This document shows, one piece after another, positions 3,741 through 22,976 of a stretch of 44,012 nucleotides of DNA (positions within the stretch are counted from its first letter, which is position 1; each line of letters starts with the position of its first letter). A program made the translations under genes and the position numbers. The notes under the pieces were generated by a model, which searched no databases, was not told the origin of the DNA, and worked only from the letters and a program-made list of their open reading frames with translations. The stretch spans positions 1 to 44,012 of the forward strand of contig SICS01000003.1 of assembly GCA_009691305.1 (NCBI GenBank). Direction: 5' to 3'. Source of the stretch: Candidatus Peribacteria bacterium (GTDB taxonomy: Bacteria; Patescibacteriota; Gracilibacteria; Peribacterales; Peribacteraceae).

Positions 3741-3826
3741 TTCCTTCTCTCCTTTCGCATGCAAAAATCTGAATCCATCTTCTGGGGTCTGTCGAGAAAG
3801 ATGTTCTGGATCAGGTCGTTCCAATT

Positions 3827-3869
3827 TGGCTCCCCCGGCCCCTCTCCGCGCTTCGCGCTACGCCGGGGC
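3827..3869. repeat. Copy of tRNA-Asn 3' end (att-like) fused to a palindromic REP-like insert
   Basis: TGGCTCCCCCGG is identical to 22657-22668. It is followed by ccccggc...cgcgcttcgcgctac...gccgggg, a hairpin. Confidence 0.65.
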
Positions 3870-3920
3870 CTCGGAGGAAGTGAAAGAATCCTGGCGGCTT
3901 TTGTGAAAGTTAAAATATTC

Positions 3921-3950
3921 TGGCTCCCCTGACTGGCTGTTTTCCGAACT
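3921..3950. repeat. att-like junction type A (TGGCTCCCC-N15-CGAAC)
   Basis: TGGCTCCCCTGACTGGCTGTTTTCCGAACT; 28/30 identical to 20073-20102. Confidence 0.85.
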
Positions 3951-4017
3951 TCTCGGAATATACCATACACTCCGTCAGTACTGTCCTCCTATCATGACTT
4001 AATTCGGAATATCTTGG

Positions 4018-6000
4018 TTATTCTCTGGTCTTCAGATGAGCCATATGCCTCTGCAAGATCTGCTGGAACGCTGAGGGGAATTCCTCGACACTCGCCGGAA
4101 TAACACTCTCTTGACCGAAGTGGAATTTCACCATTCCGGCGATATCTGGTTCGGGGGTGATAGCCGTGCCTTCCATTGGGGTTTTCTGACGTGCTGCATC
4201 AGCAGCATCTCTTGTCTCCGAGGCTTGCGTGGTGCTATCGGTGATAAAGACCATCAGAGAACCGATGCGTTCGGCTTCGGTACGCATTTGCTGCTTCTTT
4301 TTCACGATGCGAGGCAGGGCCACATTGATCGCATTCGCATCTTCATTATCTCCTCCAAAATCATGCAGCATCGTCATGAGGCGCGATTTCACACGACCAT
4401 CGTACGCTTCGTCGAAACCCTTAATGAGATATTTCTCATCATCACCAATATTCTTGTTGTCACTCGCGAGAATTTCTATGGCCACGCTGTGATCCTTCGA
4501 GCCTTCGCAGGTCTCAATGCAGGATTTCACTGCATTTTCGATGCGTTGACGATCCTGATACATCGAGCCGCTGACATCGATGAGAACTTGCAGAATGAGA
4601 GCAACATTCTCGGGGATTTTCCTTTTACCGAGGGGTTTTTCCTTACCGGTGTTTTTTCGACGGATAAGGTTCATGACACTGAAGCGGATACCCTTTGTGC
4701 CATAGACGTATTGCGGTTCGATAATTTTGGGTACGAACCGTTGGAAAACACGCTTCATTTGGTTTGTACCGGGGATGACTTGTTTTCTATATTCCTCGTA
4801 TTCCTCACGGAGTTTCGGATCTTCAAAACCATCGCGGTTCTTTTTAAGGAGATGATCCGCATCATCGCGCTTCCCTTTTGCATCAGTGTTTTTCTCCGCC
4901 TGATCTTTCTTTCCCTTCGCTTCCTTCTCTAAACGTTTCTGATGCTTCTCAATCATCTTCTGGAGAATTTGCTTCAAATGATCAGGCCATGAGGAAGGGT
5001 CTCGCGGATTGAGAGGCGGATCGCCCTCGGGAATTTTCGGCTGGCCTGTACCTTCCTCCGGCTGGTCTGCATTTGGTTCACCTGTAGATCCCTCTTCCCC
5101 CTCGTCGCCTTCATCTTGGTTTTTCTTCTGGGAAGAAGGTGGAAACTCATCGAGCAATCGTTTCATTGCCGGCCAGAGATGATCGACAATCAGCTTTTCC
5201 ACCTCTGCATTGACCTTCATTGGTGGGAGCGACGCATCGCCGGTAATTTTTGCGATGATTGGTTCAATCTTCTTGTATTCCTCAAGTGCTCGCGGATGGA
5301 GGTCATCGAGACTCCACGGCTTCTCTGTCCCTTTGAGTTCCTTCGCATGCAGTGCCCAGAGTCGTTCAAGCTTCATCATGAATCCCAGCTGTTCTGCGGG
5401 AGACATTTTCCCTTTTGCAATTCCCTGGGCGATATTCGGGATGATCAACTGCCTGTTTTTCTCGAAAAGCTGCAAACGCTGGTTATCGCGCAGCGGCCCT
5501 CCTACCAAGCGTTCCATGCGCGGATCTTCCACAAGATTATCGAGCTGCAGGAGGTGCTTGGGATCGTGGCCATCCCTTTCCGCAAGGCTCCTAAATCGAT
5601 CGCAACGGCTGAAATCCGTCCATTCGGCATGGCCACGCTCATGGGCGATCTCGCCGCGAAGGAAGTCCTTGGATGCTCCGCCTGCCGCGAAGATGAAAGG
5701 AATGCCGATGAGATACGTTTTTTTGCTGGGATCATCAACAATTTCCCCCGCATTCGTTGTTTTCTTTCCCGGCACTTGAGCGCAACAGAACGTATCGAGT
5801 TTCGGATCGGTATAAATTTCGATGCTGCGGTCGGGCGCTTGGGCGGAGCGTTCAAGATCCAACAGGAGCTGATCAACTTGCTCGGCAGTCATGTTCTTCA
5901 TGTTGTCCTTCAATTTCTGCATGAATGCATCCGCGTCGCCGAGGATCGACTCAGGCGGATTGTCGTTGTCAGGCCCGTGTTGCGGTTGATGGATGGACAT
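4018..6000 (-). CDS. vWA-domain protein with N-terminal HExxH metallopeptidase-like domain (CobT/NorD-like MoxR partner)
   Basis: AHERGH then NLVEDPRME, an acidic linker, MIDAS LIDVSGSM, and a later FITDS. Confidence 0.85.
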   Translation of the reverse strand: MSIHQPQHGPDNDNPPESILGDADAFMQKLKDNMKNMTAEQVDQLLLDLERSAQAPDRSIEIYTDPKLDTFCCAQVPGKKTTNAGEIVDDPSKKTYLIGIPFIFAAGGASKDFLRGEIAHERGHAEWTDFSRCDRFRSLAERDGHDPKHLLQLDNLVEDPRMERLVGGPLRDNQRLQLFEKNRQLIIPNIAQGIAKGKMSPAEQLGFMMKLERLWALHAKELKGTEKPWSLDDLHPRALEEYKKIEPIIAKITGDASLPPMKVNAEVEKLIVDHLWPAMKRLLDEFPPSSQKKNQDEGDEGEEGSTGEPNADQPEEGTGQPKIPEGDPPLNPRDPSSWPDHLKQILQKMIEKHQKRLEKEAKGKKDQAEKNTDAKGKRDDADHLLKKNRDGFEDPKLREEYEEYRKQVIPGTNQMKRVFQRFVPKIIEPQYVYGTKGIRFSVMNLIRRKNTGKEKPLGKRKIPENVALILQVLIDVSGSMYQDRQRIENAVKSCIETCEGSKDHSVAIEILASDNKNIGDDEKYLIKGFDEAYDGRVKSRLMTMLHDFGGDNEDANAINVALPRIVKKKQQMRTEAERIGSLMVFITDSTTQASETRDAADAARQKTPMEGTAITPEPDIAGMVKFHFGQESVIPASVEEFPSAFQQILQRHMAHLKTRE

Positions 6001-6005
6001 GAGTA

Positions 6006-6803
6006 TTACGAAGGAATGTTTTTAGGCATGTGATTTTCACGGTATTTCTCGATTCGCGTCTGTACGGCCTCATCGCTCACGCTGTTCACACGATGGAGAA
6101 GCAAGAGCCCACGATGCCGAGCCAGTACGCTTGCGGACTTCACGGACACGAGTGACGGGAGACCGAGGGACAGCGCTCCCTGCACCTGACAAAGCTCCGA
6201 CAAAATATCCGGATCCTCCGTATCCACATTGTCCAAAATGAGGTCACCTTTATGCTGTTTCATGAGTGCAGCATGCGTCTTGGTCAGTCGTGTCACCTTC
6301 GGAAGACTCAACATTTCGCGGTGCCGGCCAAAGATCGACGCTGTTTCGTCAGTGATCTGTTCCAAGGAATCAAAGTTCAGAAATACATTCCTTGCAACTA
6401 GAATATTTGCCGCGCTGGGAGTGAGGCTTTTCAGCTTCGAAAAATTGAGCGAAGGGACATCTTTGTGGTTCACGATCAGAGAAGCAATGTCAGCGGGCAG
6501 AACCGTCAATCCGGAAAAATGTCTGATATTCCCCTGACGAATTTCTTCGAAAATCGAGACATTCTTCCGCATTTCATCCGTTTCCGTCACTGACGCGCAC
6601 GCTGTACGCGCCGCCACGCGCACATCATGCATTTGTTCATCGGTCACGGGCGCATCAGCTGCTACTTGTTTATGAATCACCCCGAGCGATGTAAGAACAT
6701 CCTTGGATGCTTCTGCAGACAACTCCATCCCCGGCGCTTGCGAGCTTCTTGGCTCTTGCGCGTCATCTTTCTCTTCCCGATAGGTGTTAGGGAATGCATT
6801 CAT
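6006..6803 (-). CDS. LRR-like repeat protein, paralog 5
   Basis: Start MNAFPNTYRE 4 nt after the previous stop; about 23-aa repeats such as LNFDSLEQITDETASIFGRHREM. Confidence 0.8.
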   Translation of the reverse strand: MNAFPNTYREEKDDAQEPRSSQAPGMELSAEASKDVLTSLGVIHKQVAADAPVTDEQMHDVRVAARTACASVTETDEMRKNVSIFEEIRQGNIRHFSGLTVLPADIASLIVNHKDVPSLNFSKLKSLTPSAANILVARNVFLNFDSLEQITDETASIFGRHREMLSLPKVTRLTKTHAALMKQHKGDLILDNVDTEDPDILSELCQVQGALSLGLPSLVSVKSASVLARHRGLLLLHRVNSVSDEAVQTRIEKYRENHMPKNIPS

Positions 6804-6807
6804 TGGA

Positions 6808-8040
6808 TTATGAAGAAAAATCAGGGGGAGGAAGGCCGTACTGTTCCATGACTCTGCGATGTTTTTCCCGCGCTGCCTCATCACGAGCTGCATCCGTATA
6901 CGACATATACGTATACTCACTGTCTGAGTGCAGTTCGGTCTGGTCAATCACGCCGTAGTACGGACTATCCACTTCTCTTTCAGCCAAAATTCGCAAGACC
7001 TCATCATCCTTTTCTCGTGTCAGGCGCAAATTACTCATTTCCAATTTTCCAGGCATTTTCGCCAATGCACTGGCGATGTCCGCATGCAGCTCTCGTAAGC
7101 CTTGCAGACTCACGCCATCCGAATGAGTTGCGATAATCTCTGCCTGTTCGATCGTGAGCGATTCGTAGCCAAGCACCAATCGTCCTTGTGTTTTCACCAG
7201 CTCCTGAAGAATTTCCGTTGGCATGTCTTTCCACGTTCCCACATGAAGCCCCCCAGCATGCTTGCTCAGTTCGCGTGCGGCTTCGAGTGACATGTGTTCT
7301 ACGCCAAAAATAACGAGATCCTCCTGATGCTCACCCAGAGCCTTGGCGGCACGAGTGGAATTCAGAGAAGAAATATTGAGCGAAAGAAAATATTTTAATT
7401 GTGCCAATTCTTCCAGCACATCATCCGGAGGATTTTCGAGATTGTAAAACATCAGTCCTCCAGCATGTCTTTTGAGCAATGCCGCCTGCTTTTGGGTCAG
7501 TGTCTTCACTCCCAAACTCAGGCTACTGCCCGTGTGCTGCGCAAATTCCTCCGCAAGGTCATCGGAGAGCTCTTCAAGACTGTAGAGGTCGACCCTGTCG
7601 ATATTGCGAAATTCTTTAGCCGCATCTACCGATAAAGATTTCAGCATAGGCAAATTACATGAGTCGGTATTTTTCTTCGCGATTATTTTTGCGATGTTGG
7701 TCGGGAGGTACGTCAACTGATAGATGCCGTACATATCCTCACCACTTGCGATCTGCTCCCACACTTTTTTGTTATTTTCCAAATCCGGCACATGGGGCAA
7801 TGTGCTGAGAGAAATCTGAGCAGGGCCGACATCCACAATCAGGCCATGTAATGCACCCCGCACTTTTTCCATGTCACTCGCCATTAAGGAGCCATCATGT
7901 GCAATGCCGTGTGCGACACTTTCCATCTTTTCTAGCAAAATCTGCCCTTCGGGTGTTTCGGAGACGGGCGTGCGATTTCCATCCGCGTTTTCGGATTCTT
8001 TTTCGTGTTCGTCCCGATGGATGTTCGGTGTAGGAGGCAT
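6808..8040 (-). CDS. LRR-like repeat protein, paralog 4
   Basis: MPPTPNIHRD start; repeats such as VDLYSLEELSDDLAEEFAQHTGS. Confidence 0.82.
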   Translation of the reverse strand: MPPTPNIHRDEHEKESENADGNRTPVSETPEGQILLEKMESVAHGIAHDGSLMASDMEKVRGALHGLIVDVGPAQISLSTLPHVPDLENNKKVWEQIASGEDMYGIYQLTYLPTNIAKIIAKKNTDSCNLPMLKSLSVDAAKEFRNIDRVDLYSLEELSDDLAEEFAQHTGSSLSLGVKTLTQKQAALLKRHAGGLMFYNLENPPDDVLEELAQLKYFLSLNISSLNSTRAAKALGEHQEDLVIFGVEHMSLEAARELSKHAGGLHVGTWKDMPTEILQELVKTQGRLVLGYESLTIEQAEIIATHSDGVSLQGLRELHADIASALAKMPGKLEMSNLRLTREKDDEVLRILAEREVDSPYYGVIDQTELHSDSEYTYMSYTDAARDEAAREKHRRVMEQYGLPPPDFSS

Positions 8041-8048
8041 GGTAGTGA

Positions 8049-9359
8049 TCAGATATAGGGATGTTTTTGTACTTCTTTTTCTATTGCAGGGGAAAGATAT
8101 GTCCCGAAAACGTGTTGCTTAAAAGCGTGAGCCGCACGGTCGGAAATGGAAGTCAAACCTCGCAGGCCGATGGAATAGTGATGATCCCTCAAGGCCTGAA
8201 TTGTTTCTTGAGAAAGCTCAGGCAGAGCCGGAAGCTTTTCCAGCATTAGGCTTTGTTTGTTCTTGAGGAGAGATCGGAATTGTTTGTCCGAAAGAGACGT
8301 TAGTCCATAAAGAGCGATATCACCGTTATGGTTGGCAATCCAACGAACAGTTTCTTCCGAAAATTCAGGTAAGGTCGTGATCTTACTCAAGGACAACGTA
8401 TCTTTGGGACTATGGAGAAGACTACGAAATTCCGAATCAGAAATAGTCTCCAAACCCATCGAAAGACAGCCCCATTCCCTGTTGGACAGAGCGTTCTCCG
8501 TCTCTTTCGATAGAGCTGGAAGTTTTTTGATGCCATCCAATCGAATAGTGTTGCGCCGCTTGGAAAGCAGCTGCCTGAACTGTTTATCAGAAAGCGAGGA
8601 AATACCATCAAGCGACAAGTGAGCTTCATGATTCTCTAAAGCTCTGAGGACATCGTCAGAAAGTTCGGGGAGAGAATGCAGGCCATCGAGCCCAAGATCC
8701 CCGGTAATACTGAGCAACATTTGCAATTCCTGGCTGGAGATTGAGTTCAGCCCAGTAAGTCTGAGAGAGTCGCGTCTTCCGGAAGACAGAGCTTGTATGT
8801 TTTGTTCCGATAATGGAGGTAAGGATGACAGACCATCCATCTGCAATCCTCTCTTGCCACTGCGAAGAGCGAAGAACTGCTTTGTAGAAATAGATTGGAA
8901 TCCGTTCAGTTCTATATACTTGTGGTTATCTCCCTGTAGAAGTCCTGCAATGGTTTCGTCGGACAATTTCGTAATGAGCGGAAATTTGAGAAAATAATCC
9001 TGATCTTTTGCGAGAGCGATCGCAATCGCCGGCGGAAGAATGGTCAGCTTGCTATGATTTGCGGATTTCCCATCCAAAATTTCCCTCCAAATTTTTCCAT
9101 TTTGTTTCAGCTCTCCGTCTTCGAGAGTAAATGTTCTTCCTTCCACCGTGACTGATGCGCCTGCAATGGCAGATTCCAAGCTCTGAATGTGGGCTTGGTT
9201 CATTGGCGCATCCTGAGAAATATTCCGTTGAACAGATTCCAGAGTAGAATCAACGATTTTCGATGTAGGTGACGTCGATAACTCAACGTGCGCGGACGCG
9301 TTGGGGTCTGGCGTTTCATCTTCTATATTTTCCCGATGGATATTGGAGGTGATAGACAT
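8049..9359 (-). CDS. LRR-like repeat protein, paralog 3
   Basis: MSITSNIHRE start; alternating repeats LxLDGLxSLPxLS and LxLxGLxSIS. Confidence 0.82.
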   Translation of the reverse strand: MSITSNIHRENIEDETPDPNASAHVELSTSPTSKIVDSTLESVQRNISQDAPMNQAHIQSLESAIAGASVTVEGRTFTLEDGELKQNGKIWREILDGKSANHSKLTILPPAIAIALAKDQDYFLKFPLITKLSDETIAGLLQGDNHKYIELNGFQSISTKQFFALRSGKRGLQMDGLSSLPPLSEQNIQALSSGRRDSLRLTGLNSISSQELQMLLSITGDLGLDGLHSLPELSDDVLRALENHEAHLSLDGISSLSDKQFRQLLSKRRNTIRLDGIKKLPALSKETENALSNREWGCLSMGLETISDSEFRSLLHSPKDTLSLSKITTLPEFSEETVRWIANHNGDIALYGLTSLSDKQFRSLLKNKQSLMLEKLPALPELSQETIQALRDHHYSIGLRGLTSISDRAAHAFKQHVFGTYLSPAIEKEVQKHPYI

Positions 9360-9388
9360 TGCAGAAATGCAAATGGTTTCAAATAATC

Positions 9389-10705
9389 TTAGTCTTTTAA
9401 GTCAGCTTCTTGCCGCATTTTTTTGATACGTATGTGTAGGTCAGAGCAACCGCCAATCCTCGCCTTTCCCTTTGCCAAAGCCTGTATTCCCAAATCTGAA
9501 ATAGTACGCAATTCTGAGAAATATACTTCTCCATCATGCCGGGATAGCGACTGAGCTTGTGCGTCGGTGAGAGAACTCACTTTCCCAAGATTCAGTTTTC
9601 CCTTGTGCTTCGAAAATGATTCCGCCTGTGCATCGTTCATACTTTCTAAATACCACAATGACAGATTATCAGAGACCTTGGACAGGGCTTCGGCAGAACG
9701 ATCAGTGAGTTGTGTTACCCCGAGCGTTACTGATTTATTCCCGGTTGCAAGAGAGACGATTCCCGTTTCAGAAATTGAACGTAGACGAATGAAGTCAAGC
9801 TCACCGCCGTAATTTTCCAGAAATTTTGCTTGAGTATTGGAGAGAACAGTAATTCCAAGTTTTAAATGTGTTCCCACATACTTACTCTTACTTTTGGTAT
9901 GTTTCGCCAGCGATGCTAACTGCGCATCTGTGATTTGTTCCAATTCGCCAAAATTGATGTACGACTCTCCATCCTCATACTTGCGGACGAACTCATCTAT
10001 ATCGACGTTGCCAAAGCGAGTGACGTTCGCAAGATTCATCTTCCCCTCATGCTTGAAAAGGTGAGCGAGTGCCCCGTCAGAAAGAGTCTTCAGACCTGCA
10101 ACATTAAGGTAACCTCGATGCTTGCTCAATTCTTTTGCAGCGTCCTCTGAAAGATCCTTCAGACGACAGAGCCAAAGTGCATCGCCAGCATGTCTTGCGA
10201 GTTCTTTTGCAACTTCAGGAGTGATGGACTGCAATTCATTTAAACGAAGTTGTTTTGGGGATCGCGCAAGAATCCGAGCTGTTTCGGGCGTTAGTTTCCG
10301 AAGACCAACTAAGTACACAAAGTGCCCCCTATTGAGGTGTACTATTTTCTCCGCAACAGGCTCTGTTATAAGAGTCATTTTTTCAATCTCCATCGTGTCT
10401 TCGTCAGACAAAACAGCCTTCCATATTCGAATGTTTTCTTTGTGTTCGGGATTAGTTTTCAATTCGGGAAGAGATACTTTTTCCCCTCCGACTACAACCA
10501 TAGTATTTTCAAGTTCTTCACGAAAATGATGAATGTCCTTCCCAAGCACCGGATGATTGTGTTGAATCTTCGCTTCGATGTCTTCAGGTGGCTTTAGAAG
10601 CGACTGAGCGCTCGTCGATGATTCAATCTCCAAAGGAATGCTAGGCGTACTGTTTTCGCCTTGCTGATCGTGTTCGTCCCGATGGATGTTGGGGGGTGTA
10701 CTCAT
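9389..10705 (-). CDS. LRR-like repeat protein, paralog 2
   Basis: MSTPPNIHRD start in ATGA overlap with the upstream gene; repeats such as LRLNELQSITPEVAKELARHAGD. Confidence 0.82.
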   Translation of the reverse strand: MSTPPNIHRDEHDQQGENSTPSIPLEIESSTSAQSLLKPPEDIEAKIQHNHPVLGKDIHHFREELENTMVVVGGEKVSLPELKTNPEHKENIRIWKAVLSDEDTMEIEKMTLITEPVAEKIVHLNRGHFVYLVGLRKLTPETARILARSPKQLRLNELQSITPEVAKELARHAGDALWLCRLKDLSEDAAKELSKHRGYLNVAGLKTLSDGALAHLFKHEGKMNLANVTRFGNVDIDEFVRKYEDGESYINFGELEQITDAQLASLAKHTKSKSKYVGTHLKLGITVLSNTQAKFLENYGGELDFIRLRSISETGIVSLATGNKSVTLGVTQLTDRSAEALSKVSDNLSLWYLESMNDAQAESFSKHKGKLNLGKVSSLTDAQAQSLSRHDGEVYFSELRTISDLGIQALAKGKARIGGCSDLHIRIKKMRQEADLKD

Positions 10706-11925
10706 GGTTTTTCCTGAATAGCGGGACAAAAAACTTTGCCATGGAACTGAATTTTTGCCTTATTCCTCAGAGGATCATTCAGCCACTCCTGCACTTCCGA
10801 CGGGAACGAGGAAAAATCCACATTCACAAAGTACAAATTTGCACCTTCACATTTACAGAGGGCCCTTGCTGCCTCTGGAGTCATTGCTTCCACTGCAGGA
10901 CAAAGTAGATAACCCTTAAATCTATGGAATGCTTTTGCAACTTCAACGTGCATCGCAGCCAAATTCGCTAGATAAAGCTCAACGTTTGGATCCAATGTTG
11001 CAAGATGTGCCGCCGCCTCCGGACTCAGACCGGTAACCTCTGCCAACGCCAAACGGCTTCCTTTGAAATGAGAAATACCACGCGCAGCTTCAGGCGTCAG
11101 AACAGTCAGATTCGATAAGGTCAATAACTTGATGTGTGATCGTCCTATACCTTCCGCTTCATCAGCCGTAAGAGCAGTCAGTCCCAGCATTACATGCCAG
11201 ATTTCGCAATCACTCAATGCTTGTGCTGCTTCCGTAGAGAGTGACTGCACACCGCGAAGATAGAGGTCTTCACCCCTGAATGTTGCCAATGCCTTTGCCG
11301 CAGTGGGACTGAGTTTTTTTAATCCATTGAGACTCAATATTTTTACATCACAGCCAGCCAGCTCCTCGGCTACGCTGTCTGAAATTGACCCGAGATGATC
11401 GAAAGAAATTACGCCTTTAATATTCTTGTTTTGGCGGATTGCTCTTGCGGTTTCGACAGGTAATACATTTACTTTGTCACAATTCAGATCAGGCCCCGGT
11501 AGTTTCGCTGCGACAGCGGGGGGAAGGAACGTAATGTCGCCATCTTCATACGGCCAAACTTTCCCTTCAATCATATATTGCCATTGATCGTTTTCATCGA
11601 AGTCTTGCAACGCAATAGAACCGAGCTGTGCCGTACGAGGCGTGATGATGGGCTCACCACCAGCTGCCCAAGGAACGCTCTTTGGTACTTCCACTCGTGT
11701 TCCCACTTGAACTGGCAAAACTCGCAACGAATCTGATAATTGCGTGAGATCATCATTCTTGATCGTCTTGTCATGCATAACCGCTTGATGCGCTGCGCTC
11801 AATGTTTGCAGGAGAGACGTAAGCTGCGTTCCCTCTGTTATAGGCAACCGGAGCGCATCAGAATTTTCTCCGCTTGCGGCGGGTGCATCTGAATCCCTGT
11901 GAATGAGGGGGCGATTCTGGTTCAT
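10702..11925 (-). CDS. LRR-like repeat protein, paralog 1
   Basis: MNQNRPLIHRD start; repeats such as LSLNGLKKLSPTAAKALATFRGE. Confidence 0.82.
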   Translation of the reverse strand: MNQNRPLIHRDSDAPAASGENSDALRLPITEGTQLTSLLQTLSAAHQAVMHDKTIKNDDLTQLSDSLRVLPVQVGTRVEVPKSVPWAAGGEPIITPRTAQLGSIALQDFDENDQWQYMIEGKVWPYEDGDITFLPPAVAAKLPGPDLNCDKVNVLPVETARAIRQNKNIKGVISFDHLGSISDSVAEELAGCDVKILSLNGLKKLSPTAAKALATFRGEDLYLRGVQSLSTEAAQALSDCEIWHVMLGLTALTADEAEGIGRSHIKLLTLSNLTVLTPEAARGISHFKGSRLALAEVTGLSPEAAAHLATLDPNVELYLANLAAMHVEVAKAFHRFKGYLLCPAVEAMTPEAARALCKCEGANLYFVNVDFSSFPSEVQEWLNDPLRNKAKIQFHGKVFCPAIQEKP

Positions 11926-11934
11926 GGGGAGTCA

Positions 11935-13872: not shown

Positions 13873-14002
13873 AGGCAAGGTTGGAAAATGATGGATGTGT
13901 GTTTTCTCTACATATTTTAGCAGAAATAGCAAGTTTGCGGAAGGGGAAGTATCGCAAGTTCTACTACATGATTGAGTGCTTTAATTTACCAAACGAACCC
14001 AA

Positions 14003-14902: not shown

Positions 14903-15672
14903 TAGAAAGGAAGAGCGGAAGAAGATCCCTGCTTCAAAAGAGCGTCATTACCGTCAGTACAGTCATTTTTGGCTTCTAGCGGCCACTCATTTGCTAACGG
15001 TATTGATGACTGCATACCAAATACTTCTCTGGCAGTATCAACACTTAAGGCGTCATGCGAAGAGTTGCTCGCATCGATGGGAAGTGTAGGTGTGACGCTA
15101 GTGACGATACTTTGCGGGGTTTTCTCAACCTGGATCTTCGAGCCTTCACTATCGCGATAAAAGCGCAGAAGCATGCCTGTCTCTTCCAAGTCGCTTTTTA
15201 CTTCCTTGAGCCGCCTCGTGAGCACCTGTGGACCCTTCGGCCATTCTTTTGCTTTAAGATCGATCCGTTCCTCAGTAGCCACATCAACCAGCATACCGAG
15301 TAAAGTAGACATTTTCCCTTCCCACGTCCCCCGGCTGCTCATAAAAATCTGCAAGGCACTGGCGATTGGATGCTCTTGTAGTACGACTCGATGTTGTTCG
15401 CCAATGTTCTCGTAATAGGCCTCCAGAAAGGCTTCCTTGCCATACCCAAGCGCTTCAGCGATGGCGCAGCCCCACAGGGCGAAGTCGGCCATCCGGGGCA
15501 TCTCCTGAAGCTGTAGAGAAGGCAGGATCGCCATTGCCTTGGAGAGCGTATTGAAGACTCCGCCGAGAATAAACGGCAAGTCGCGATCGAACTCGTCCCA
15601 AACGGCCTGCTCTGTCCGTCGTTTGCTTTTCGGAATCTTCTCGAACTCCAGCAGAATACTGCGTTCCAGCGC
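14902..15672 (-). pseudogene. 5'-truncated primase/helicase-type replication ATPase remnant
   Basis: LERSILLEF...ILGG....L...PRMADFALW resembles the C-terminal half of mobile-element replication ATPases. No Walker A is present and the upstream part of the frame overlaps tyrA. Confidence 0.6.
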
Positions 15673-15721
15673 CCACAACCAACCGCCGATGTGAAGTGAT
15701 CGACGGTTGTGAGCGTGCGAA

Positions 15722-16900
15722 TTATTGTTGGATGTCTGTCTCTGCGAGGAGAACATCAATTGCATCAAGGTCTGATGCCAATCGTGAGATATCCACCAGT
15801 GCTTTATCCTTACGACCAAGCTCGAATTCCATACCATTTTTGCTCGGTAGAGAATCAATCGCATTCAGATCGATGCCATGGTGAGCGAGGATCGCGCAGA
15901 TGTTTTCGAGAAGGCCAATGTGGTCCTTGCGTGCTGTGAGGTGGAGAGATTTTTTGCGGATGTTCCCCAATCGAACGATTATGGTGTTCGTTTTTGCTCT
16001 CATCCGTGTGCGCCATATCTTCTGTGGATCCAGTCTATCGCGAGCATCTTCGATAAATGCGGGAAGTTTTCGTTCTTCTTTCGGCCGATCTTTATCGTGC
16101 TGTGCCAGCTCCAGTATGCGCTGCATGGATACGATAACTTGCTCAAGTTCGGATTTGCCTTCCTTCGAAGAAGCCATATTGGCTATGAGGCTTGCCTGCA
16201 AATGGGCGTCAAGTGTCATGCCTCGACCGACGGAGAGCATGAAGAGTTCGGAGTTTGGCGAGCACAATCGATCCAAGTCATCAACCGTGTGGCCATCGCT
16301 CAGGCCACTCCCTATGGCCACGCAGCCTGCGACTTGCAAAAAGTGAGGCATTCCTTGAATCGGTCTCATCAATCGGTCATGCACTTCAGCTTGCATCCAG
16401 TGAATTGTCATTTCTTGACTGCGGAAAAATGCTTCGCCGATCATGTCGGCTTCTTTTGATCTCTCACTGACCGGACAAATGATGCCGTTCTGTCCGCGCA
16501 GGGAAGGGGGATCCGGCGGCACACCTGTCATCGGATGAATGGACCCGAACAATGCCGTTCCATCGTTGCTATCTATTTCTTGCACTAGGTTGATAAAGCC
16601 TTCTTTCGATGATCCGATGTCGATCACAATTTGGTTTGGTCGTAGTTTCGCGCGCATCTCGAGGATGATTCCAGGGATGGCATCGAGCGGAGCGGAGAGA
16701 AATATGATGTCTGCACGCTCGGTAAGTTCATCGAGCGGCACATGAGGGAAATTCGGTTCGGTTTTTGCTCGGACGGGATCCGACTGCAGCATCGGATGAA
16801 GAGAATGAAGCGATACTGTTTGCACCAAATGCTTGCCCCACTTGCCGACGCCGACAACGCCAACGGTTCGCTTGCCGATAATGTTTGATAGTGATTCCAT
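15722..16900 (-). CDS. tyrA: Prephenate dehydrogenase with C-terminal ACT domain
   Basis: GVGKWG Rossmann motif, DIGSSK, HPMTG, HD..M..IQ..PH; ACT-like DHIGLLENIC...GIDLNAIDS. Confidence 0.85.
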   Translation of the reverse strand: MESLSNIIGKRTVGVVGVGKWGKHLVQTVSLHSLHPMLQSDPVRAKTEPNFPHVPLDELTERADIIFLSAPLDAIPGIILEMRAKLRPNQIVIDIGSSKEGFINLVQEIDSNDGTALFGSIHPMTGVPPDPPSLRGQNGIICPVSERSKEADMIGEAFFRSQEMTIHWMQAEVHDRLMRPIQGMPHFLQVAGCVAIGSGLSDGHTVDDLDRLCSPNSELFMLSVGRGMTLDAHLQASLIANMASSKEGKSELEQVIVSMQRILELAQHDKDRPKEERKLPAFIEDARDRLDPQKIWRTRMRAKTNTIIVRLGNIRKKSLHLTARKDHIGLLENICAILAHHGIDLNAIDSLPSKNGMEFELGRKDKALVDISRLASDLDAIDVLLAETDIQQ

Positions 16901-17027
16901 AATTGAGAAAAGAAAAAGAAATACAAGAAAGGAAAATTACGCATCGATAGCGGTACGCACTCGCATCGCAGATGAGCTCGTAGTAGGTGGAACGGCCGAT
17001 CATGAAGGGGAATATATGCATACGTAC

Positions 17028-17052
17028 AAAAAACCCCGCGGATGCGAGGGCT
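17028..17052 (-). terminator. Attenuator intrinsic terminator upstream of tyrA
   Basis: Minus strand reads AGCCCTCGC-ATCC-GCGGGG-TTTTTT. Confidence 0.75.
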
Positions 17053-17079
17053 GAAATAATCGTGGTCAGATACAGCAGC

Positions 17080-17139
17080 TCACATCCGTGTGGAGCGGGT
17101 GTAGTAAGAAGAGATAATGATACAACAGGACTTTTTCAT
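17080..17139 (-). promoter_or_regulatory. Leader peptide MKKSCCIIISSYYTRSTRM (putative Tyr attenuator)
   Basis: 19-codon ORF with tandem TAC TAC. CGGATGTGAG can pair with CTCGCATCCG of the terminator as an antiterminator. Confidence 0.72.
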
Positions 17140-17148
17140 GATAGGGTA

Positions 17149-17176
17149 ATTTTACATTTTATAAGCTTAATGTCAA
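17149..17176 (-). promoter_or_regulatory. Sigma70 promoter for leader-tyrA
   Basis: TTGACA-16 nt-TAAAAT, ending 9 nt before the leader ATG. Confidence 0.6.
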
Positions 17177-17315
17177 GGATGGCTCGACGTGGTTCAAGCT
17201 ATTCGAATTAGCTACGACTTCGTTTCGAATGCTATTCGAATGTAACAGCAGGGCACTATCAACAATACGAAAGGACGCCAGCACAGAGTGCTGACGTCCC
17301 CTGCTGCAGGTTTCC

Positions 17316-17747
17316 CTACAGCTCGTAGTTCTTCTTGACCGCAACGACGTTCTGCACCCAGGCGTCGGCCTCGTTCGGCGTGCCATTCAGATCGTTATAG
17401 CACACCATGGACGGCTCCTTGGCGGTGTATTCGATTTCGCCGTCAGCCGTCCTCAACTTCTTGACGTTGCCGGGCTGGAGGATGTTTTGGTCATCCACCC
17501 AGATCGGCAGCTTGTCGTAGAGGCCTGGCTTGGAGCCGGGCATCCAGCCGATGGGAGCCGTTTTGTCGGCGTTCGGCTGAACGAGGTGGCTGATCTCCGT
17601 ATCCGACGATGTCTTCAGAAAGGCCCCGTTGGGTGCCTGCTGGAGATTGTCAGCGGAGTTTCCCCACTCTGACCGCTTGTCGATCGTGACTGGGCTGGGG
17701 CAGAAGAAGAACCGAACGTCGCGCTGCTTGGACAAAAGCTTTCGCAT
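17316..17747 (-). CDS. Hypothetical protein
   Basis: 143-aa ORF with AGGAG Shine-Dalgarno, biased codon use and a consensus promoter upstream. Confidence 0.75.
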   Translation of the reverse strand: MRKLLSKQRDVRFFFCPSPVTIDKRSEWGNSADNLQQAPNGAFLKTSSDTEISHLVQPNADKTAPIGWMPGSKPGLYDKLPIWVDDQNILQPGNVKKLRTADGEIEYTAKEPSMVCYNDLNGTPNEADAWVQNVVAVKKNYEL

Positions 17748-17809
17748 GATTTATCTCCTATGCGAAAAGGGTGAAGGAACTACAAGGAGACAAAATGCCT
17801 CCTTGTATT

Positions 17810-17838
17810 ATTATACAATATCAATTTTAAAATGTCAA
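17810..17838 (-). promoter_or_regulatory. Consensus sigma70 promoter adjoining the att core
   Basis: TTGACA-17 nt-TATAAT starting 4 nt from the tRNA-end copy, followed by the inverted repeat TACAAGGAG/CTCCTTGTA (17781-17807). Confidence 0.8.
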
Positions 17839-17842
17839 ATTA

Positions 17843-17878
17843 TGGCTCCCCATCCTGCGCCTTCTGCGAACGGATTGG
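17843..17878. repeat. att-like junction type B
   Basis: TGGCTCCCCATCCTGCGCCTTCTGCGAACGGATTGG; one mismatch versus 21593-21628. Confidence 0.88.
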
Positions 17879-18085
17879 ATGCAGGAAATACGAGAGCTTG
17901 AACTCGCCCTCAAAGAGATTCGTTTCCTGCTTGTGACCGAGCAACCCACACTGACTACTTCTTTCAGTGCGAGGAACTAAACGCGACGTAGAAACTGAAC
18001 GAACCGACGATGCTACCAAACGTCCGTTAAAGCGCAGTTGAGTCCGCAGAGCAGTGGCCATTGATAGCGAGGGCATAGTTCTTGC

Positions 18086-19168
18086 TTATCCAGTAGGCAA
18101 CTCTGTTTCCGTATTGGCTGATGTTTCACCGAGCACTTTGAAGCTATTATAGAATTTCACGAACTGCGAGTCATCCACTGCGCCGTTGCTGATAGCGTAA
18201 ATGGAATCTGATGTTTCAATGTACACGACTTTGCTAATCCAATCCGCATACTGCTTTGTTGTCACTGTGACGAGCAATGCGTCGTGGCCATCCACCTGAA
18301 TGGTTTTTCGTGACTCGGCTCTGTCAGCAAATTGGTCGCCCATACCTTGTATGACAGTTTCAAGGTTGGTGCTGGATTTTTTATAGACACCGATACCCCA
18401 AATCAGACCACCTGCTTTGGACTCTTCTGTACCAAATCCAACGCCTGTACTGTCCCCATAGTCATCCTCACTTGTAATCCAATTGCTTGGATAGAGCACC
18501 GAAAAATGCAGAGAATTGCTTGTATACGTTTTCCATGTGTCGCTCTTTGCGGTAGCTAATTCCTGATATGTTGCAGAGGGTTTAGTTTCAATGTGAGCAC
18601 GTAGACGATAAATTATCTCTGCCATCTCGCCTCTGGTGATAAGTTGGTCAAACGAGTGAACGGATGTGGGAATAGCATGTCTCTCGCCCAGTTCAACAAT
18701 GAACGGCGCGTACCAAGGTGAATCTATTGCAGGCTGATCAAACCCAAACGACCTCATGATGATTTTTGAAGCCTCTGCGAAATTGATTGTATTGTTCGGC
18801 TTGAATGTGCCGTCGGGATAGCCGTCAATGAGGTGCGAGAAGTGCGCAGAAATGACGTATGGGAAGAACCAATCTCTATCAATGTTCACGTCAGGAAATG
18901 TCATAGTTACGCCCATCGGTGTGTCAGTGGGCAGTCCTTGTGCGCCGACAATGATTTTTACGAACTCTGCTCGGTTGATGGTGTTGTTCGGCTTATACGT
19001 TCCATCAGGATACCCAGACACAATTCTTTCCTGTTGGGCGTAGACGATAGCGTCGTAGTTCGCATGGTTTGAGACTACATCAGGGAAACTAGCAAAAACC
19101 GTTCCTTGTAGCGCAAAAAGACCGACAGCCAACAGACTTATATTAGTTACAGCTTTCATAGTAATCAT
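18086..19168 (-). CDS. S-layer homology (SLH) domain protein with C-terminal PsbP-like domain
   Basis: Signal peptide; GYPDGTYKPNNTINRAE twice and ITRGE; WKTY...FSVLYPSNW. Confidence 0.85.
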   Translation of the reverse strand: MITMKAVTNISLLAVGLFALQGTVFASFPDVVSNHANYDAIVYAQQERIVSGYPDGTYKPNNTINRAEFVKIIVGAQGLPTDTPMGVTMTFPDVNIDRDWFFPYVISAHFSHLIDGYPDGTFKPNNTINFAEASKIIMRSFGFDQPAIDSPWYAPFIVELGERHAIPTSVHSFDQLITRGEMAEIIYRLRAHIETKPSATYQELATAKSDTWKTYTSNSLHFSVLYPSNWITSEDDYGDSTGVGFGTEESKAGGLIWGIGVYKKSSTNLETVIQGMGDQFADRAESRKTIQVDGHDALLVTVTTKQYADWISKVVYIETSDSIYAISNGAVDDSQFVKFYNSFKVLGETSANTETELPTG

Positions 19169-19303
19169 AGGGGCGATGTAGAGAGTTTAGCACATTGAAT
19201 ACTTGAAGACCTTGTTTGTAAATAGACGCAATTTGCATGTCTTTACAGTGCTCAATATAGATTCGTACCTCGATGAGGGCGTAGCCAGTCAGTCTCGACA
19301 AGT

Positions 19304-19789
19304 ATGTATCCTAGGAATAATGTTGGGTGCATGAATAATGCATTTCCTTTGTTGCACTCATTTTTTGGAGTCGAGACTGCCTTCGCCAATCCAATTCCTT
19401 ATGGCAGTGTTAGTAGCCCAGCCCAACTAACGTCCGCTGCATTTCTACTTTCACTAGGTTTTACTGTTGCAATAGAGCTTGTTGTTGTTCTGATAATTTC
19501 TTCAATTTTCTTGCGACGGCAAAACATCAGCAAATCACGACTACTACTTTCTGCTATTGTTGCTTCAACGATCACACTACCTCTTCTCTGGTACGTCTTT
19601 TTGCCGCGGGGGGCTAATGTAATTCTTCTTGAAGTTGCTGTCGTTATGATAGAGGCTCTTCTTTATCGTTATATTTTGCCGACACGTTGGAATTACGCTC
19701 TCCTACTTGCGGTTATTGCCAACGTCGTTTCTTTTTTGGCTAGTCCAATACTCGCCACTTATATTGTCGGAACAAATCCATATCTCTAA
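19304..19789 (+). CDS. Small integral membrane protein
   Basis: About four TM segments, with TVAIE, ITLP, E.....E and AN..S motifs. The start may be 19331. Confidence 0.7.
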   Translation: MYPRNNVGCMNNAFPLLHSFFGVETAFANPIPYGSVSSPAQLTSAAFLLSLGFTVAIELVVVLIISSIFLRRQNISKSRLLLSAIVASTITLPLLWYVFLPRGANVILLEVAVVMIEALLYRYILPTRWNYALLLAVIANVVSFLASPILATYIVGTNPYL

Positions 19790-19834
19790 ATTGATTAACC
19801 TTCTTGTAATCAGAGCATTTTCGGCGGCTCATAG

Positions 19835-20081
19835 GGTAGCATTACCGCTGATAAGTACGACAATTTGATAGAGGAATATAAGGCGCATAGGCCGCGTTTT
19901 TGGAAGAATTACAAGGTCACGCGATGCCGAGCTTTCACGCGTTCGCAACCCGACCAAATGAACCAACTGCTGCGCTTCGTGCTTGCGAACGGCAAAGTGG
20001 AAGGCGAAAAGCTCATCTACGAGCTGAAAAGTCCGTACTCGGGTATCGCACAGTGTGTTAAAAACTAAAGTATGGCTCCCC
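19835..20081 (+). pseudogene. Large serine recombinase C-terminal remnant (internal deletion and frameshift)
   Basis: GSITADKYDNLI...NQLLRFVLANGKVEGEKLIYELKSPYSGIAQCVK, homologous to 22363-22671. An extra A lies just before the WLP core. Confidence 0.75.
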
Positions 20082-20102
20082 CGGCTGGCTGTTTTCCGAA
20101 CT
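20073..20102. repeat. att-like junction type A
   Basis: TGGCTCCCCCGGCTGGCTGTTTTCCGAACT. Confidence 0.88.
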
Positions 20103-20165
20103 GAGGACAATATTCGTTCATCTCCGACAATTGAATGTGGTTTCTCATTTGTCGAGACGAATAAA

Positions 20166-21557
20166 TTAGTGGAGCAAGGATTGTCGGTCGGGAAGTGACC
20201 GAATATTCTTGTTATAGCTGCTTTTCAATAGTTCTAGCGCCTTGTCTGCTGGATGAACGTCCGCCTTTTTGCATGCTTCTACAATGCCTAAAGCAGAGTT
20301 ATCGGATAGGGCAATATCTTTGAGCGCTCGATGTCCGCAGATCGAATACGCACTGTAAGGATTCTCCAAGTCAATACCTCCCTGAGAGCGTACTATCTCG
20401 CGATGTGCTTCCAAATGAGCGGCATGGTTGCAGAAAGCACGGAACGCGCGATCTTTCTCGTTTGCTCGAATAAGCTTCTCCATTTGCTGAATGGTTCCAC
20501 CGACCTGTCCGGATAATTCAGCAATGCCGATATACAGACTGGAAGATTTTATGCCATCCGTGCGGAATTGTTTCCACAAGATCAGAAGCTCCCTTGCCCC
20601 CGGAGCAAGTAGCGCTTCAACGCCGATATCCATTTCGTTTGCACTAGGATGATGTTTACTGAATTCATGAATGTAAGAGCGATCGTGAGCATGTTCGATT
20701 TCTTCAAAAAGAAGACGTTCGCCTTCCATGTTCGTTGCAAATTCTTCAGGGGTCATTGAACGGACGTACTGCTGCAGTTCAACGTCAAAAGGATTCTCAG
20801 GTTTTTCTGTTATGCGTTTATAGCTGTTTTTCGCATCGACATAGAGTTGTCTCGGATCAATGAAAATATACCTACCAACAGCATGACCTGGAGATCCGCC
20901 TTCTTTCCACTTAACGATGACTGCGAACGCTGATTCTCCAATGGGCGCAGGAAATTCTCGCCAGCTTGAATCTTCAACATCTCCTTCCCAAAACTCCGGC
21001 TTGATATTGCTTCCGAATTTTGCAGGAAAAAATACTGTTCCACTCGGCAAACAGAGATGAGCGTTAAATGCTATTGCCGCTCTATGAATGAGGACGAAGG
21101 GGTCATCTGTATTGAGATCAGGTTCAAACGATGGATTGAGAGCATGAGACTGACGCAAGAATTGTACTACGGTTTCATGCTTCAATTTTTGCAAAGACAA
21201 ATCATCCACAATTGTACGCAGAACTCCTTGAAGGGCTTGAACTTCTTCGCGGGGAATATTAACGTTCAGTTCCAACGGTTTCGATGCTTCTTCGGCAAGT
21301 AGTGTCGGTGGAATGAGGCAATCAAGAGGGACTAACGCAGCCTCATCTCGCCCTTTAGTCATAAGCAACTCTTTCAATTCAAATCGAGCGATGTCGTAAT
21401 GTGCTCGTAATCTCGATTTAATTTCCAATTGGCGCTGATGCTGATGTTCGGGCATTTTTTCTTTCCTTCGCTTCGCATTCTTTTCGCACGCATTAAGTTG
21501 CGATAGTTCACCCTCAAGCTTAGCCAATTCAGCATCAGGAAGTTTCGCTAGATCCAT
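20166..21557 (-). CDS. Hypothetical protein, sole cargo of a cassette
   Basis: 463-aa ORF filling the interval between two att-like sites; coiled-coil N-terminus. Confidence 0.75.
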   Translation of the reverse strand: MDLAKLPDAELAKLEGELSQLNACEKNAKRRKEKMPEHQHQRQLEIKSRLRAHYDIARFELKELLMTKGRDEAALVPLDCLIPPTLLAEEASKPLELNVNIPREEVQALQGVLRTIVDDLSLQKLKHETVVQFLRQSHALNPSFEPDLNTDDPFVLIHRAAIAFNAHLCLPSGTVFFPAKFGSNIKPEFWEGDVEDSSWREFPAPIGESAFAVIVKWKEGGSPGHAVGRYIFIDPRQLYVDAKNSYKRITEKPENPFDVELQQYVRSMTPEEFATNMEGERLLFEEIEHAHDRSYIHEFSKHHPSANEMDIGVEALLAPGARELLILWKQFRTDGIKSSSLYIGIAELSGQVGGTIQQMEKLIRANEKDRAFRAFCNHAAHLEAHREIVRSQGGIDLENPYSAYSICGHRALKDIALSDNSALGIVEACKKADVHPADKALELLKSSYNKNIRSLPDRQSLLH

Positions 21558-21563
21558 ATTTTT

Positions 21564-21591
21564 ATATTACAACAATTATTTTATTAGTCAA
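21564..21591 (-). promoter_or_regulatory. Sigma70-like promoter adjoining the att core
   Basis: TTGACT-16 nt-TAATAT, with the ATG 6 nt later (probably leaderless). Confidence 0.55.
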
Positions 21592-21592
21592 A

Positions 21593-21628
21593 TGGCTCCC
21601 CATTCTGCGCCTTCTGCGAACGGATTGG
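21593..21628. repeat. att-like junction type B
   Basis: TGGCTCCCCATTCTGCGCCTTCTGCGAACGGATTGG. Confidence 0.88.
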
Positions 21629-21696
21629 TATGGTGCTATGCGTGATCTTACCCCTGCGCTGGACTCACTTATTCGCCCGCTACTCCTTGCTTCGGC

Positions 21697-22206
21697 CTAG
21701 TTCCAGAGCGAATCCCAGTTATTCAGGTATGGAGCGATTAGAGTGCTATGTTTTTTATCATCAAGATGGCGTTTTTTATTTTTATCACTATGTTTGCGGC
21801 CATCTTTTCCTGGGGTTTTAAGCCATAATTCATGTTCACTGGTAAGCCATGAAGAGAGCATCTTTGTCGGTACGACGTAGAAATGGAGCTTCTGAATTTC
21901 TGCGGCAAGATTGACCAGAATTGTGAAGTCCCGCCCTTTATCTAGCAGCCGAAAGATCGAACCGTCCTTGTGGGCGTTCCATTGCCAAATATCGTAGTCC
22001 TCGGATTTTGTCTTCACACGCAATCTCACATCTTTTCCATTTTTTGTAGCAAGAATGTCGAAAGCTGTGGCATTGCGCGGTGTTAGCGCAGCAATCACTC
22101 CGCGTTTCAAAAGTTCGGCCATGACATAGTGCTCACCGGCATTGCCAACAAGTGTTCCCTCGCCAGCCTTGATACGACCCTTCATATCGACAGAATACCA
22201 CTTCAT
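21697..22206 (-). CDS. PD-(D/E)XK-fold nuclease-like protein
   Basis: GNAGEHYVMAELLKRG...FDILA...RVKTK matches the restriction-endonuclease-like G..GE / D / xxK pattern. Confidence 0.75.
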   Translation of the reverse strand: MKWYSVDMKGRIKAGEGTLVGNAGEHYVMAELLKRGVIAALTPRNATAFDILATKNGKDVRLRVKTKSEDYDIWQWNAHKDGSIFRLLDKGRDFTILVNLAAEIQKLHFYVVPTKMLSSWLTSEHELWLKTPGKDGRKHSDKNKKRHLDDKKHSTLIAPYLNNWDSLWN

Positions 22207-22362
22207 AATTGGTCAGTCATCCGATCCAGTAATAAGGCCGTCTGTTGATTGAATATCAGACTATAGTCTGTAGAACAATAAGATTCAACCAATGTAAGTT
22301 GGTATAACTATGGCTACTATTTCTAAGGATCAGAACATAAAGAATTTTCAGATAGCGTTTGG

Positions 22363-22671
22363 AGTATTACCCACGATGAGTACGACAAACTGATTGTGGA
22401 TACGAAGACACGGGAAGAACAACTACACGATGAAATGCGGTCACATAGCAAGGCCGACGAAACGTTCCTCATATCGTGTTCCTACTTGCTGGAACTGCTT
22501 CAAAGGGCATCCGACCTTTTTGAGCGTTCGCAACCTGCCCAAAAGAACCAACTTCTGCGTTTCGTACTTGCGAACGCAAAGGTAGAAGGCGAAAAGCTAG
22601 TCTGGGACTTGAAAAGTCCGTTTTCTGGTATTGCCCAGTGTGTCAAAACGAAAGAATGGCTCCCCCGGTAG
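22363..22671 (+). pseudogene. Large serine recombinase C-terminal remnant reading into the tRNA 3' end
   Basis: SITHDEYD...LLELLQRASDLFE...KNQLLRFVLAN...GEKL...LKSPF...WLP, where WLP is encoded by the antisense of the tRNA end. Confidence 0.8.
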
Positions 22672-22731
22672 GATTCGAACCTACGACCGTCTCGTTAACA
22701 GCGAGCTGCTCTACCACTGAGCTACAGGGGA
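22657..22731 (-). tRNA. tRNA-Asn(GTT)
   Basis: TCCCCTGTAGCTCAGTGGTAGAGC...CTGTTAA...GTAGGTTCGAATCCTACCGGGGGAGCCA; 75 nt with encoded CCA. Confidence 0.97.
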
Positions 22732-22773
22732 ATGAGAATGAAAAGATACCGATGATGGAAGAAAGAACAACAC

Positions 22774-22835: not shown

Positions 22836-22976
22836 GGGTGACCGATGAAAAAAGAGCGGACGAGGAAGTTACAACAAAACGGTACGGATCCCAAGTATAG
22901 ATTGCCGCTCCAGGCAGCGCTACATCAATACTATCGGTAAAGGAGCCGCAATCGCCTGTCCCTGTATAGTGCACGC

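Follow-up and report, generated by a model that had tools for sequence, protein, structure and literature searches.

How does a very small bacterial genome come to carry six copies of the end of one tRNA gene, all in the same orientation and with unrelated genes packed between them? The question is raised by positions 3827 to 22731 of a stretch of 44,012 nucleotides (hereafter the window) from contig SICS01000003.1 of a Candidatus Peribacteria bacterium, whose genome assembly (GCA_009691305.1) holds 1,068,182 bases in 44 contigs, with 57.1% GC and 98.8% completeness. The repeats are real, and they are attachment scars of large serine recombinases (LSRs). We consider it quite probable that the region as a whole is a composite island, produced by repeated site-specific insertion of LSR-family elements at the 3' end of a tRNA-Asn gene. 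A first-pass annotation, made by a model from the sequence alone, had instead described an integron-like array of cassettes stacked by a recombinase acting in trans. As we argue below, much of what it saw was correct, and the integron part of its reading was not.

The region has a single tRNA, tRNA-Asn(GTT), on the minus strand at 22657-22731 (called by ARAGORN and Rfam). Read as its reverse complement, the 3' end of this gene is TGGCTCCCC, and the plus strand has this sequence at 3827, 3921, 17843, 20073, 21593 and 22657, the last copy being the end of the tRNA gene itself. These six copies compare with 0.28 expected, a number reached in 0 of 100 shuffles, and the five non-tRNA copies all fall between long open reading frames (ORFs), with core-to-core intervals of 94, 13,922, 2,230, 1,520 and 1,064 bp. 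Four of them have the form TGGCTCCCC-N15-CGAAC (expectation 0.00), whereas the spacer in the tRNA is N10; the pattern count thus agrees with the first-pass annotation on the orientation of the repeats, on their position between cargo genes and on the two spacings. That annotation would have given up its reading had the motif been as dense elsewhere in the genome. It is not: the N15 form is found four times genome-wide, every time at the tRNA-Asn locus (reversed-pattern control, 0), and the bare nine-base core 20 times on both strands, including the six at this locus. Two sequence types alternate among the N15 copies, A (3921 and 20073) and B (17843 and 21593); for four sites, such an alternation has a chance of 1 in 3, and we make no claim from it. 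The core at 3827 fits neither of the two spacings, N15 or N10. Across the island, GC is 44-55% in 1-kb windows, versus 57% in the genome. Numbering the cores c0 to c5 and the units between them E0 to E4, the features are as follows.

3827-3835, plus strand: core c0, the outermost scar, with CGG and a GC-rich hairpin to its right and no N15 or N10 arm
3836-3920, plus strand: E0, a 94-bp mini-unit (c0 to c1) with no ORF, whose GC-rich 3839-3867 is an inverted repeat of 22792-22820
3921-3949, plus strand: core c1 with a type-A element-side arm (TGGCTCCCC TGACTGGCTGTTTTC CGAAC)
3950-17842, genes on the minus strand: E1, a 13.9-kb cargo unit with no recombinase
17843-17878, plus strand: core c2 with a type-B element-side arm (..ATCCTGCGCCTTCTGCGAACGGATTGG), as at the far end of the full-length LSR elements of relatives
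17879-20072, genes on both strands: E2, a 2.2-kb unit with an SLH/PsbP_2 protein, a membrane ORF and a decayed LSR C-terminal remnant
20073-20101, plus strand: core c3 with a type-A arm, its left flank being a decayed LSR 3' end
20102-21592, ORF on the minus strand: E3, a 1.5-kb unit whose single ORF, of 463 aa (20166-21557), belongs to no known family
21593-21628, plus strand: core c4 with a type-B arm
21629-22656, no strand assigned: E4, a 1,064-bp unit (c4 to c5) with a 169-aa ORF and an open LSR remnant
22366-22668, plus strand: the open LSR gene remnant, in which the final 100 codons (ITHDEYD...KEWLP) are followed by R and a stop and which reads into the antisense of the tRNA
22657-22731, minus strand: tRNA-Asn(GTT), whose 3' end is core c5 with the host-side arm (N10-CGAAC, the T arm)
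22776-22830, minus strand: a second, partial copy of the 5' part of tRNA-Asn, split by a 33-nt GC-rich insert

The relatives show what these cores are. Among 200 genomes of the order, the exact N15 pattern is present at 30 sites in 27 genomes (20 of type B, 6 of type A and 4 of neither type; reversed control, 0), and the present genome is the only one with more than one such site. In 20-kb stretches of relatives, the far ends of the elements at tRNA-Asn read TGGCTCC[CT]C-N15-CGAAC-NGA[TC]TGG, like c2 and c4, and this type-B far arm lies 7 to 14 kb from the tRNA in the genomes G041, G068, G069 and G067. An empty form of the site is found in the same-genus genome G152, where it reads GAGTGAGTGGTTCA|TGGCTCCCC|tRNA; its left arm recurs in G146 and G059, at the far ends of the elements there. 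When this empty site is compared with the occupied ones (G059, G146, G041 and G068), host sequence gives way to element sequence at the edges of TGGCTCC[CT]C, so that the exchange falls within the nine bases, as short-core exchange leaves it. The two ends of an occupied site are hence hybrids of the element site (attP) and the host site (attB) that share only a short core. In this anatomy, TGGCTCCCC would be the stretch common to element and host sites, inside which the strands are exchanged; the sequence to the right of the non-tRNA cores (N15-CGAAC) would be the element half-site P', and the T arm of the tRNA (N10-CGAAC) the host half-site B'. CGAAC is part of the tRNA T-loop sequence; its distance from the core is 10 bases in the tRNA and 15 in four of the four element arms. 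In serine integrase sites, the motif of the zinc-ribbon domain is set 5 bp closer to the centre in attB than it is in attP, with ranges of 11-19 and 16-24, respectively (PMC3783163). The N15/N10 offset of the right arms fits this shift, and both positions come within these ranges, provided that the centre lies inside the core, where we have placed it.

Which recombinase would use such sites? Over about 300 bases, the sequence left of 20073 is homologous to that left of 22657 (a 125-nt repeat within it has 82% identity), and both flanks are remnants of a serine recombinase gene. At the tRNA, the frame reading TGG CTC CCC stays open for about 110 codons upstream, and this 109-aa reading matches, with 62-97% identity, the C-termini of proteins of 496-541 aa with Resolvase and Recombinase domains. 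Five of these proteins from relatives (P0001, P0002 and P0005-P0007) carry PF00239 and PF07508, and one short homologue bears the NCBI label Candidatus Peregrinibacteria. The AlphaFold model of P0001 (pLDDT 81.9), with its long helical hairpin (336-383 / 389-412), and the match to the SPbeta integrase fit the architecture of LSRs. The LSRs of relatives end in readings such as WLPRLDSNQQP or WLGRRDSNPR, which we take to be the translated antisense of a tRNA T arm (compare WLPR and stop at 22657); the recombinase gene therefore runs into the tRNA that it targets. Matches to P0001 with E 1e-20 or better occur in 68 of 151 genomes of the order. At the eight full-length loci with 46-54% identity, the 3' end of the gene is at tRNA-Asn in five and at tRNA-Arg in one (ARAGORN); the other two have no ARAGORN call, yet show tRNA-like sequence at the gene end. 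Seven of eight more distant loci (28-31% identity) adjoin tRNA-Gln.

In the window itself, no Resolvase catalytic domain and no Recombinase domain was found, and only the last 100 codons or so remain, in two copies. The first-pass annotation had noted the lack of an intact recombinase in the window, and this holds. The only Resolvase/Recombinase ORF of the genome, which is also its only intact LSR, is on contig C40 (24011-25649, an open frame of 494 aa), beside tRNA-Gln(TTG); it ends in ...LLLKDGTITLEKNGKNKGK without reading into that tRNA. The only Phage_integrase ORF is on contig C31, and neither an IntI-type nor any other integrase lies beside the array. We also considered that the gene might be split, with its N-terminal half kept elsewhere, but the close-lineage matches to P0001 in 151 genomes are either full-length or C-terminal, and none is an N-terminal piece alone.

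Do the units vary in natural populations? Of the words sampled from positions 17000-23400, 76-96% are present in five public freshwater metagenome runs, which come from three studies and may include the source sample. We compared the Logan contigs of four runs with positions 3500-23000, setting aside the parts of the stretch that run X2 does not cover. In run X5, a contig of 2,089 bp passes from 21590 straight to 22655 and omits exactly the 1,064 bp of E4. Its joint has 11 shared bases and 0 mismatches over 267 and 346 flanking bases, and the depth is 5.85 on this contig versus 2.14 over E4. The unit E4 is thus gained or lost in nature exactly at the cores. The same joint is found in runs X1 and X4, with 19 bases only on one side; a contig of X4 joins 17841 to 22656 (c2 to c5), with 28 bases on one side; and in X2 and X4 the type-A arm at 20073 (c3) is also found behind a different left neighbour. 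In three runs, contigs stop at 21601, the end of core c4, where the population branches. The prediction of the first-pass annotation that differences between strains should break at the cores is thus borne out for E4 and weakly for the other cores. An enzyme may have made these core-to-core joints. One further joint, between 20088 and 22691 and with 18 inserted letters, comes from the tRNA-Asn of other organisms and is no variant of this locus.

The most likely mechanism is as follows. An LSR element with a P-core-P' site would recombine with the tRNA-Asn site; this would leave the tRNA intact, since the core has the tRNA body on its right. Newcomers would insert beside the tRNA and displace the older units outward, which would make c0 the oldest scar and E4 the youngest unit. 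The older units would lose their recombinase, and type-A units would be those that never show one. E2 and E4 would derive from LSR-bearing elements and keep only the last 100 or so codons; E1, E3 and the 94-bp E0 have no recombinase sequence whatever. Units E1 to E4 lie between cores and hold no recombinase domain, like the recombinase-less units known as cis-mobilizable elements (CIMEs). With no recombinase gene in any unit, movement of any kind depends on an LSR in trans. It would probably come from a full-length element in tandem or passing through, as in G069, where a full-length and a truncated element lie in tandem and meet at a P-P' junction. Units that lack a recombinase but have the same arms are also found at tRNA-Asn elsewhere: a 3.8-kb unit with a type-A-like arm and no LSR in G146, of the same genus; a 2.64-kb type-A unit with no LSR in G028 (L095:2717-5359); and truncated type-B units in G059, G017, G069 and others. 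The view that non-autonomous units were moved in trans, put forward in the first-pass annotation, is in this way largely supported as to the recombinase-less units at cores, and the action in trans is what we infer from them. The three ORFs of the G028 unit resemble, by eye, a metal-responsive regulator, a ZIP-type metal transporter and a multi-pass membrane protein.

The remnants left in some of these units raise an additional question: why do they all begin at the same place? We found 28 LSR places in 24 of the 200 genomes, 10 of them full-length, 1 a longer piece (G033), 4 at contig edges and 13 truncated. All 13 truncated copies start within a few bases of the same point, which lies 291 bases before the core, at codon I of ITHDEYD, in the context ...GACGGGCGT|ATTAC... 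Upstream of this break, the sequence is unrelated between copies, even where the downstream part is 94% identical, and truncated fragments with 82-94% DNA identity sit in different genera with unrelated sequence up to the break. The codon before the break is AGA or AGG (arginine) in 8 of the 13 truncated copies; it is CGT in 8 of the 10 full-length genes. On the model of P0001, the break maps to the loop 384-388 between helices 336-383 and 389-412, which is the tip of the predicted coiled coil. A search of 1.84 billion representative proteins gave 1,172 matches, and among the 155 proteins examined (19 full-length and 136 short), 74 of the short homologues begin to match a full-length profile at positions 380-399, often after 10-68 unrelated residues. 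The element-side tail WLP-x5-RT stands behind about thirty short ORFs (counted by eye) and behind none of the full-length ones, and the full-length proteins with a readable tail all end in antisense-tRNA readings. This restriction to short ORFs fits the idea that truncated units are older, displaced ones. It also disposes of the proposal that WLP.....RT marks the end of one missing recombinase: these residues are a reading of the P' arm, found after many truncated LSR ORFs and no full-length one examined.

Truncated LSR genes arose repeatedly. In a tree of the 100-residue region, truncated forms are scattered among full-length ones, with at least five switches forced by well-supported branches, and the truncated forms cluster no more tightly than in 200 of 500 label shuffles. 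The truncation of the element G069b is a 4.4-kb deletion relative to an element like that of G118, and the deletions in G017 and G190 begin elsewhere in the same upstream gene family and end at the same point on the right. The frame is open in 12 of the 13 truncated copies, and differences lie mainly at third codon positions, a coding-like pattern. The dN/dS ratio is 0.07-0.16 in a close group and 0.11 and 0.26 in two pairs of truncated sisters; pairs of full-length genes give 0.07-0.38. These low values of the truncated copies are no proof of function and may be partly inherited from full-length parents, since the terminal branches are short. The remnant in the window has no canonical start codon between the upstream stop and the break, the first in-frame one being the GTG at 22396. 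Two other origins of the break were considered and set aside. A second insertion inside the recombinase gene finds no trace, the sequences upstream of the break being neither recombinase 3' ends nor N15 arms. A conserved N-terminal addition to the short ORF is at odds with the unrelated upstream contexts; a small ORF with MRLKVSPK is common to G017, G069b and G190 upstream of the break and is in frame in G190 only.

The fixed start could reflect either a selected mini-protein or a site-specific break with a fixed right end, and we do not choose between them. In either form, we tentatively raise the possibility, which we regard as rather doubtful, of a widespread class of hitch-hiking cassettes that keep exactly the last 100 codons, from the coiled-coil tip onward, and the attachment site, as a working mini-protein or as the product of such a break. 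The mini-protein might dock onto, steer or block a full-length recombinase from another element. If true, this would be a satellite strategy not described for serine recombinase elements, and a fixed truncation at the coiled-coil tip, if functional, would bear on directionality and hijacking in serine integrase systems.

Could the island have arisen in another way? The integron-like reading, in which a resident integrase captures units and a promoter expresses them as cassettes, is suggested by the same-orientation repeats between cargo units and by the absence of recombinases from these units. We find it very improbable, because no gene for an integrase stands beside the array, the smallest unit has 94 bp and the largest 13.9 kb, E2 has genes on both strands and the repeats read, by their sequence, as LSR half-site hybrids and not as attC-type sites. 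At least two units, E2 and E4, are derivatives of once-autonomous LSR elements, not the promoterless cassettes that the name implies. The 3' ends of tRNAs are the usual target of tyrosine integrases, and phage-type enzymes of this class leave direct repeats of tRNA 3' ends, so that a classical tyrosine-integrase island must also be considered, all the more as tandem arrays with partial tRNAs are described for tycheposons (bioRxiv 10.1101/2020.12.28.424599). Yet here the repeat and the tRNA have only 9-12 bases in common, the one Phage_integrase-family ORF of the genome is on another contig, and the gene that abuts the site in relatives is a serine recombinase; we give this explanation almost no credence. 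A more serious alternative is that the island is dead tissue, autonomous LSR elements having inserted serially and decayed in place, with the form lacking E4 arising by spontaneous deletion between the 11-bp repeats or belonging to an older lineage. The lack of a cognate LSR in the genome and the many stops in the E2 remnant speak for it, as does the CIME model, in which accretion follows decay and which is established for other elements (PMC5704250). It is nevertheless unlikely in our view. The identity of the flanks of the E4-minus contig implies that the difference is recent, at a time when E4 had already lost its recombinase; the type-A units of three genomes (E1 and E3 here, and those of G146 and G028) lack any recombinase remnant and still lie between proper arms; and closely similar truncated fragments occur in different genera, next to unrelated sequence up to the break.

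The reading as a composite island of LSR-family insertions should be taken with caution, since several observations weigh against it. No cognate full-length LSR was found in the 98.8%-complete genome, and the LSR on C40 misses the threshold of E 1e-20 against P0001. By the rule that LSRs recombine only attP with attB, as reported for serine integrases (PMC3783163), insertion beside an occupied site (P-B') is left unexplained, though G069 and the array itself show that it occurs. The core c0 and the unit E0 deviate from the N15 rule, and the conserved host arm of G152, G146 and G059 is missing to the left of c0. Relatives of the genus have only 64-82% DNA identity, and their tRNA-Asn is not beside the genes of the left flank. 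On reading by eye, a mirrored motif with consistent spacing was not found in the left arms, and we claim neither mirror symmetry there nor that type-A sites are attL-like. The loss of E4 could be a recombinase-free deletion between the 11-bp repeats. Finally, the metagenome data are assembled contigs and not reads, from which variant frequencies and circular forms are not readable.

What do the units carry? E1 holds, on the minus strand, a VWA-like ORF of 660 aa, five paralogous repeat proteins (6006-11925), an AAA_5 ATPase of 665 aa and further ORFs of 299 aa, 320 aa, 392 aa (prephenate-dehydrogenase-like) and 143 aa. The five neighbouring paralogues (313-446 aa) have a common N-terminal start, NIHRD(E), and leucine-rich repeats and fall in no Pfam family. 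In E2, the SLH/PsbP_2 protein is at 18086-19168 (minus strand), the membrane ORF, of 161 aa, at 19304-19789 (plus strand) and the LSR C-terminal remnant, decayed by stops and gaps, at 19820-20080 (plus strand). The 169-aa ORF of E4 (21697-22206, minus strand) is PD-(D/E)XK-nuclease-like by an Atlas lead only. Scans with Pfam, PHROGs and PADLOC recognised no defence system and no conjugation module in the cargo: PADLOC gave 0 families in 10 of 10 cargo proteins, PHROGs only generic ATPase or unknown-function matches, and Pfam the families VWA (under its cut-off), AAA_5, PDH_N, SLH and PsbP_2.

The smallest unit has counterparts. ORF-less units of about 100 bp, of the form TGGCTCCCCCG[GA]CCC ... 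GGGCCTCG.., are found at 3827-3920 in the window and at L030:4248-4455, L033:10782-10990 and L031:16940-17010; G118, with two copies spaced 104 bp apart, and G017 have them at the outer end of the array, and in G033 the unit follows a recombinase remnant. We regard miniature hitch-hikers and decayed tRNA ends as possible interpretations. The 33-nt GC-rich insert upstream of tRNA-Asn is an 83%-complementary inverted repeat of 3839-3867, beside c0 and 18.9 kb off, and G156 has a similar arrangement upstream of its tRNA-Asn. Positions 1-149 of the window are identical to C36:4876-5024 of the same genome, so these contigs overlap and probably join. At the other side of the window, a second recombinase-less island lies within 36623-40760, with a perfect 64-nt direct repeat (37035-37098 and 40697-40760) that starts from the last 7 bases of a tmRNA gene. 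Between the two repeat copies are 3.66 kb of DNA with 47-48% GC and four ORFs (251, 157, 257 and 242 aa), with no visible recombinase. The tmRNA (36623-37041) is given a tag of 31 residues by ARAGORN, versus 18-19 in G035 and G028, and its resume codon may be miscalled.

These results may have consequences beyond this genome. Little is known of how uncultured bacteria with tiny genomes acquire genes, and the locus offers a concrete route: one tRNA gene serves as the landing pad for an LSR family, and recombinase-less cargo accumulates there and still varies between cells. The conserved arms (the 30 sites in 27 of the 200 genomes) could be used as ready-made attP/attB pairs for new serine integrases. 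The array is also a natural case of insertion at an occupied site, which the textbook rule forbids.

How does the island compare with known systems? The Ccr enzymes are large serine recombinases. Composite islands of the staphylococcal cassette chromosome (SCC) also target the 3' end of one conserved gene and consist of tandem units with short direct repeats, including psiSCC units without ccr (PMC9430635). They differ in that orfX (rlmH) and ccr are used there, whereas here the target is tRNA-Asn and the recombinase gene reads antisense into it, in an uncultured host with a very small genome in which many units keep a recombinase 3' remnant with a fixed start. The resemblance would be one of way of working, not of membership, the recombinases being apparently akin only to family level. 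Accretion of CIMEs with integrative and conjugative or integrative and mobilizable elements in streptococci offers a similar model of decay and accretion (PMC5704250); those elements mostly have tyrosine integrases and conjugation modules, and none of the latter was recognised in the cargo here. The tycheposon arrays of Prochlorococcus are alike in their small streamlined genomes, fragmented integrases and partial tRNAs, in older elements being pushed into islands and in cultures that are heterogeneous for excised elements (bioRxiv 10.1101/2020.12.28.424599). They are unlike in that 910 of the 937 elements counted there have tyrosine recombinases; here the recombinase is a serine one, and the scars are half-site hybrids and not long partial tRNAs. 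Phage serine integrase sites (Listeria A118-type, Bxb1 and phiC31) share the short core, the distinct attP and attB arms and an attP motif that lies 5 bp further out (PMC3783163), but the shifted motif is here in the right arm only and insertion at an occupied site departs from the attP x attB rule. A literature search, which is a weak negative, found no paper on Peregrinibacteria among the 10 listed of 2,124 and, among 6 others, no account of tRNA-targeted LSR tandems of non-autonomous units. The island is of a kind already known from SCC composite islands, CIME accretion and tycheposon arrays, and it is new as a variant, by its host group, by a serine recombinase that reads into a tRNA and, above all, by the truncation of that recombinase at a fixed point.

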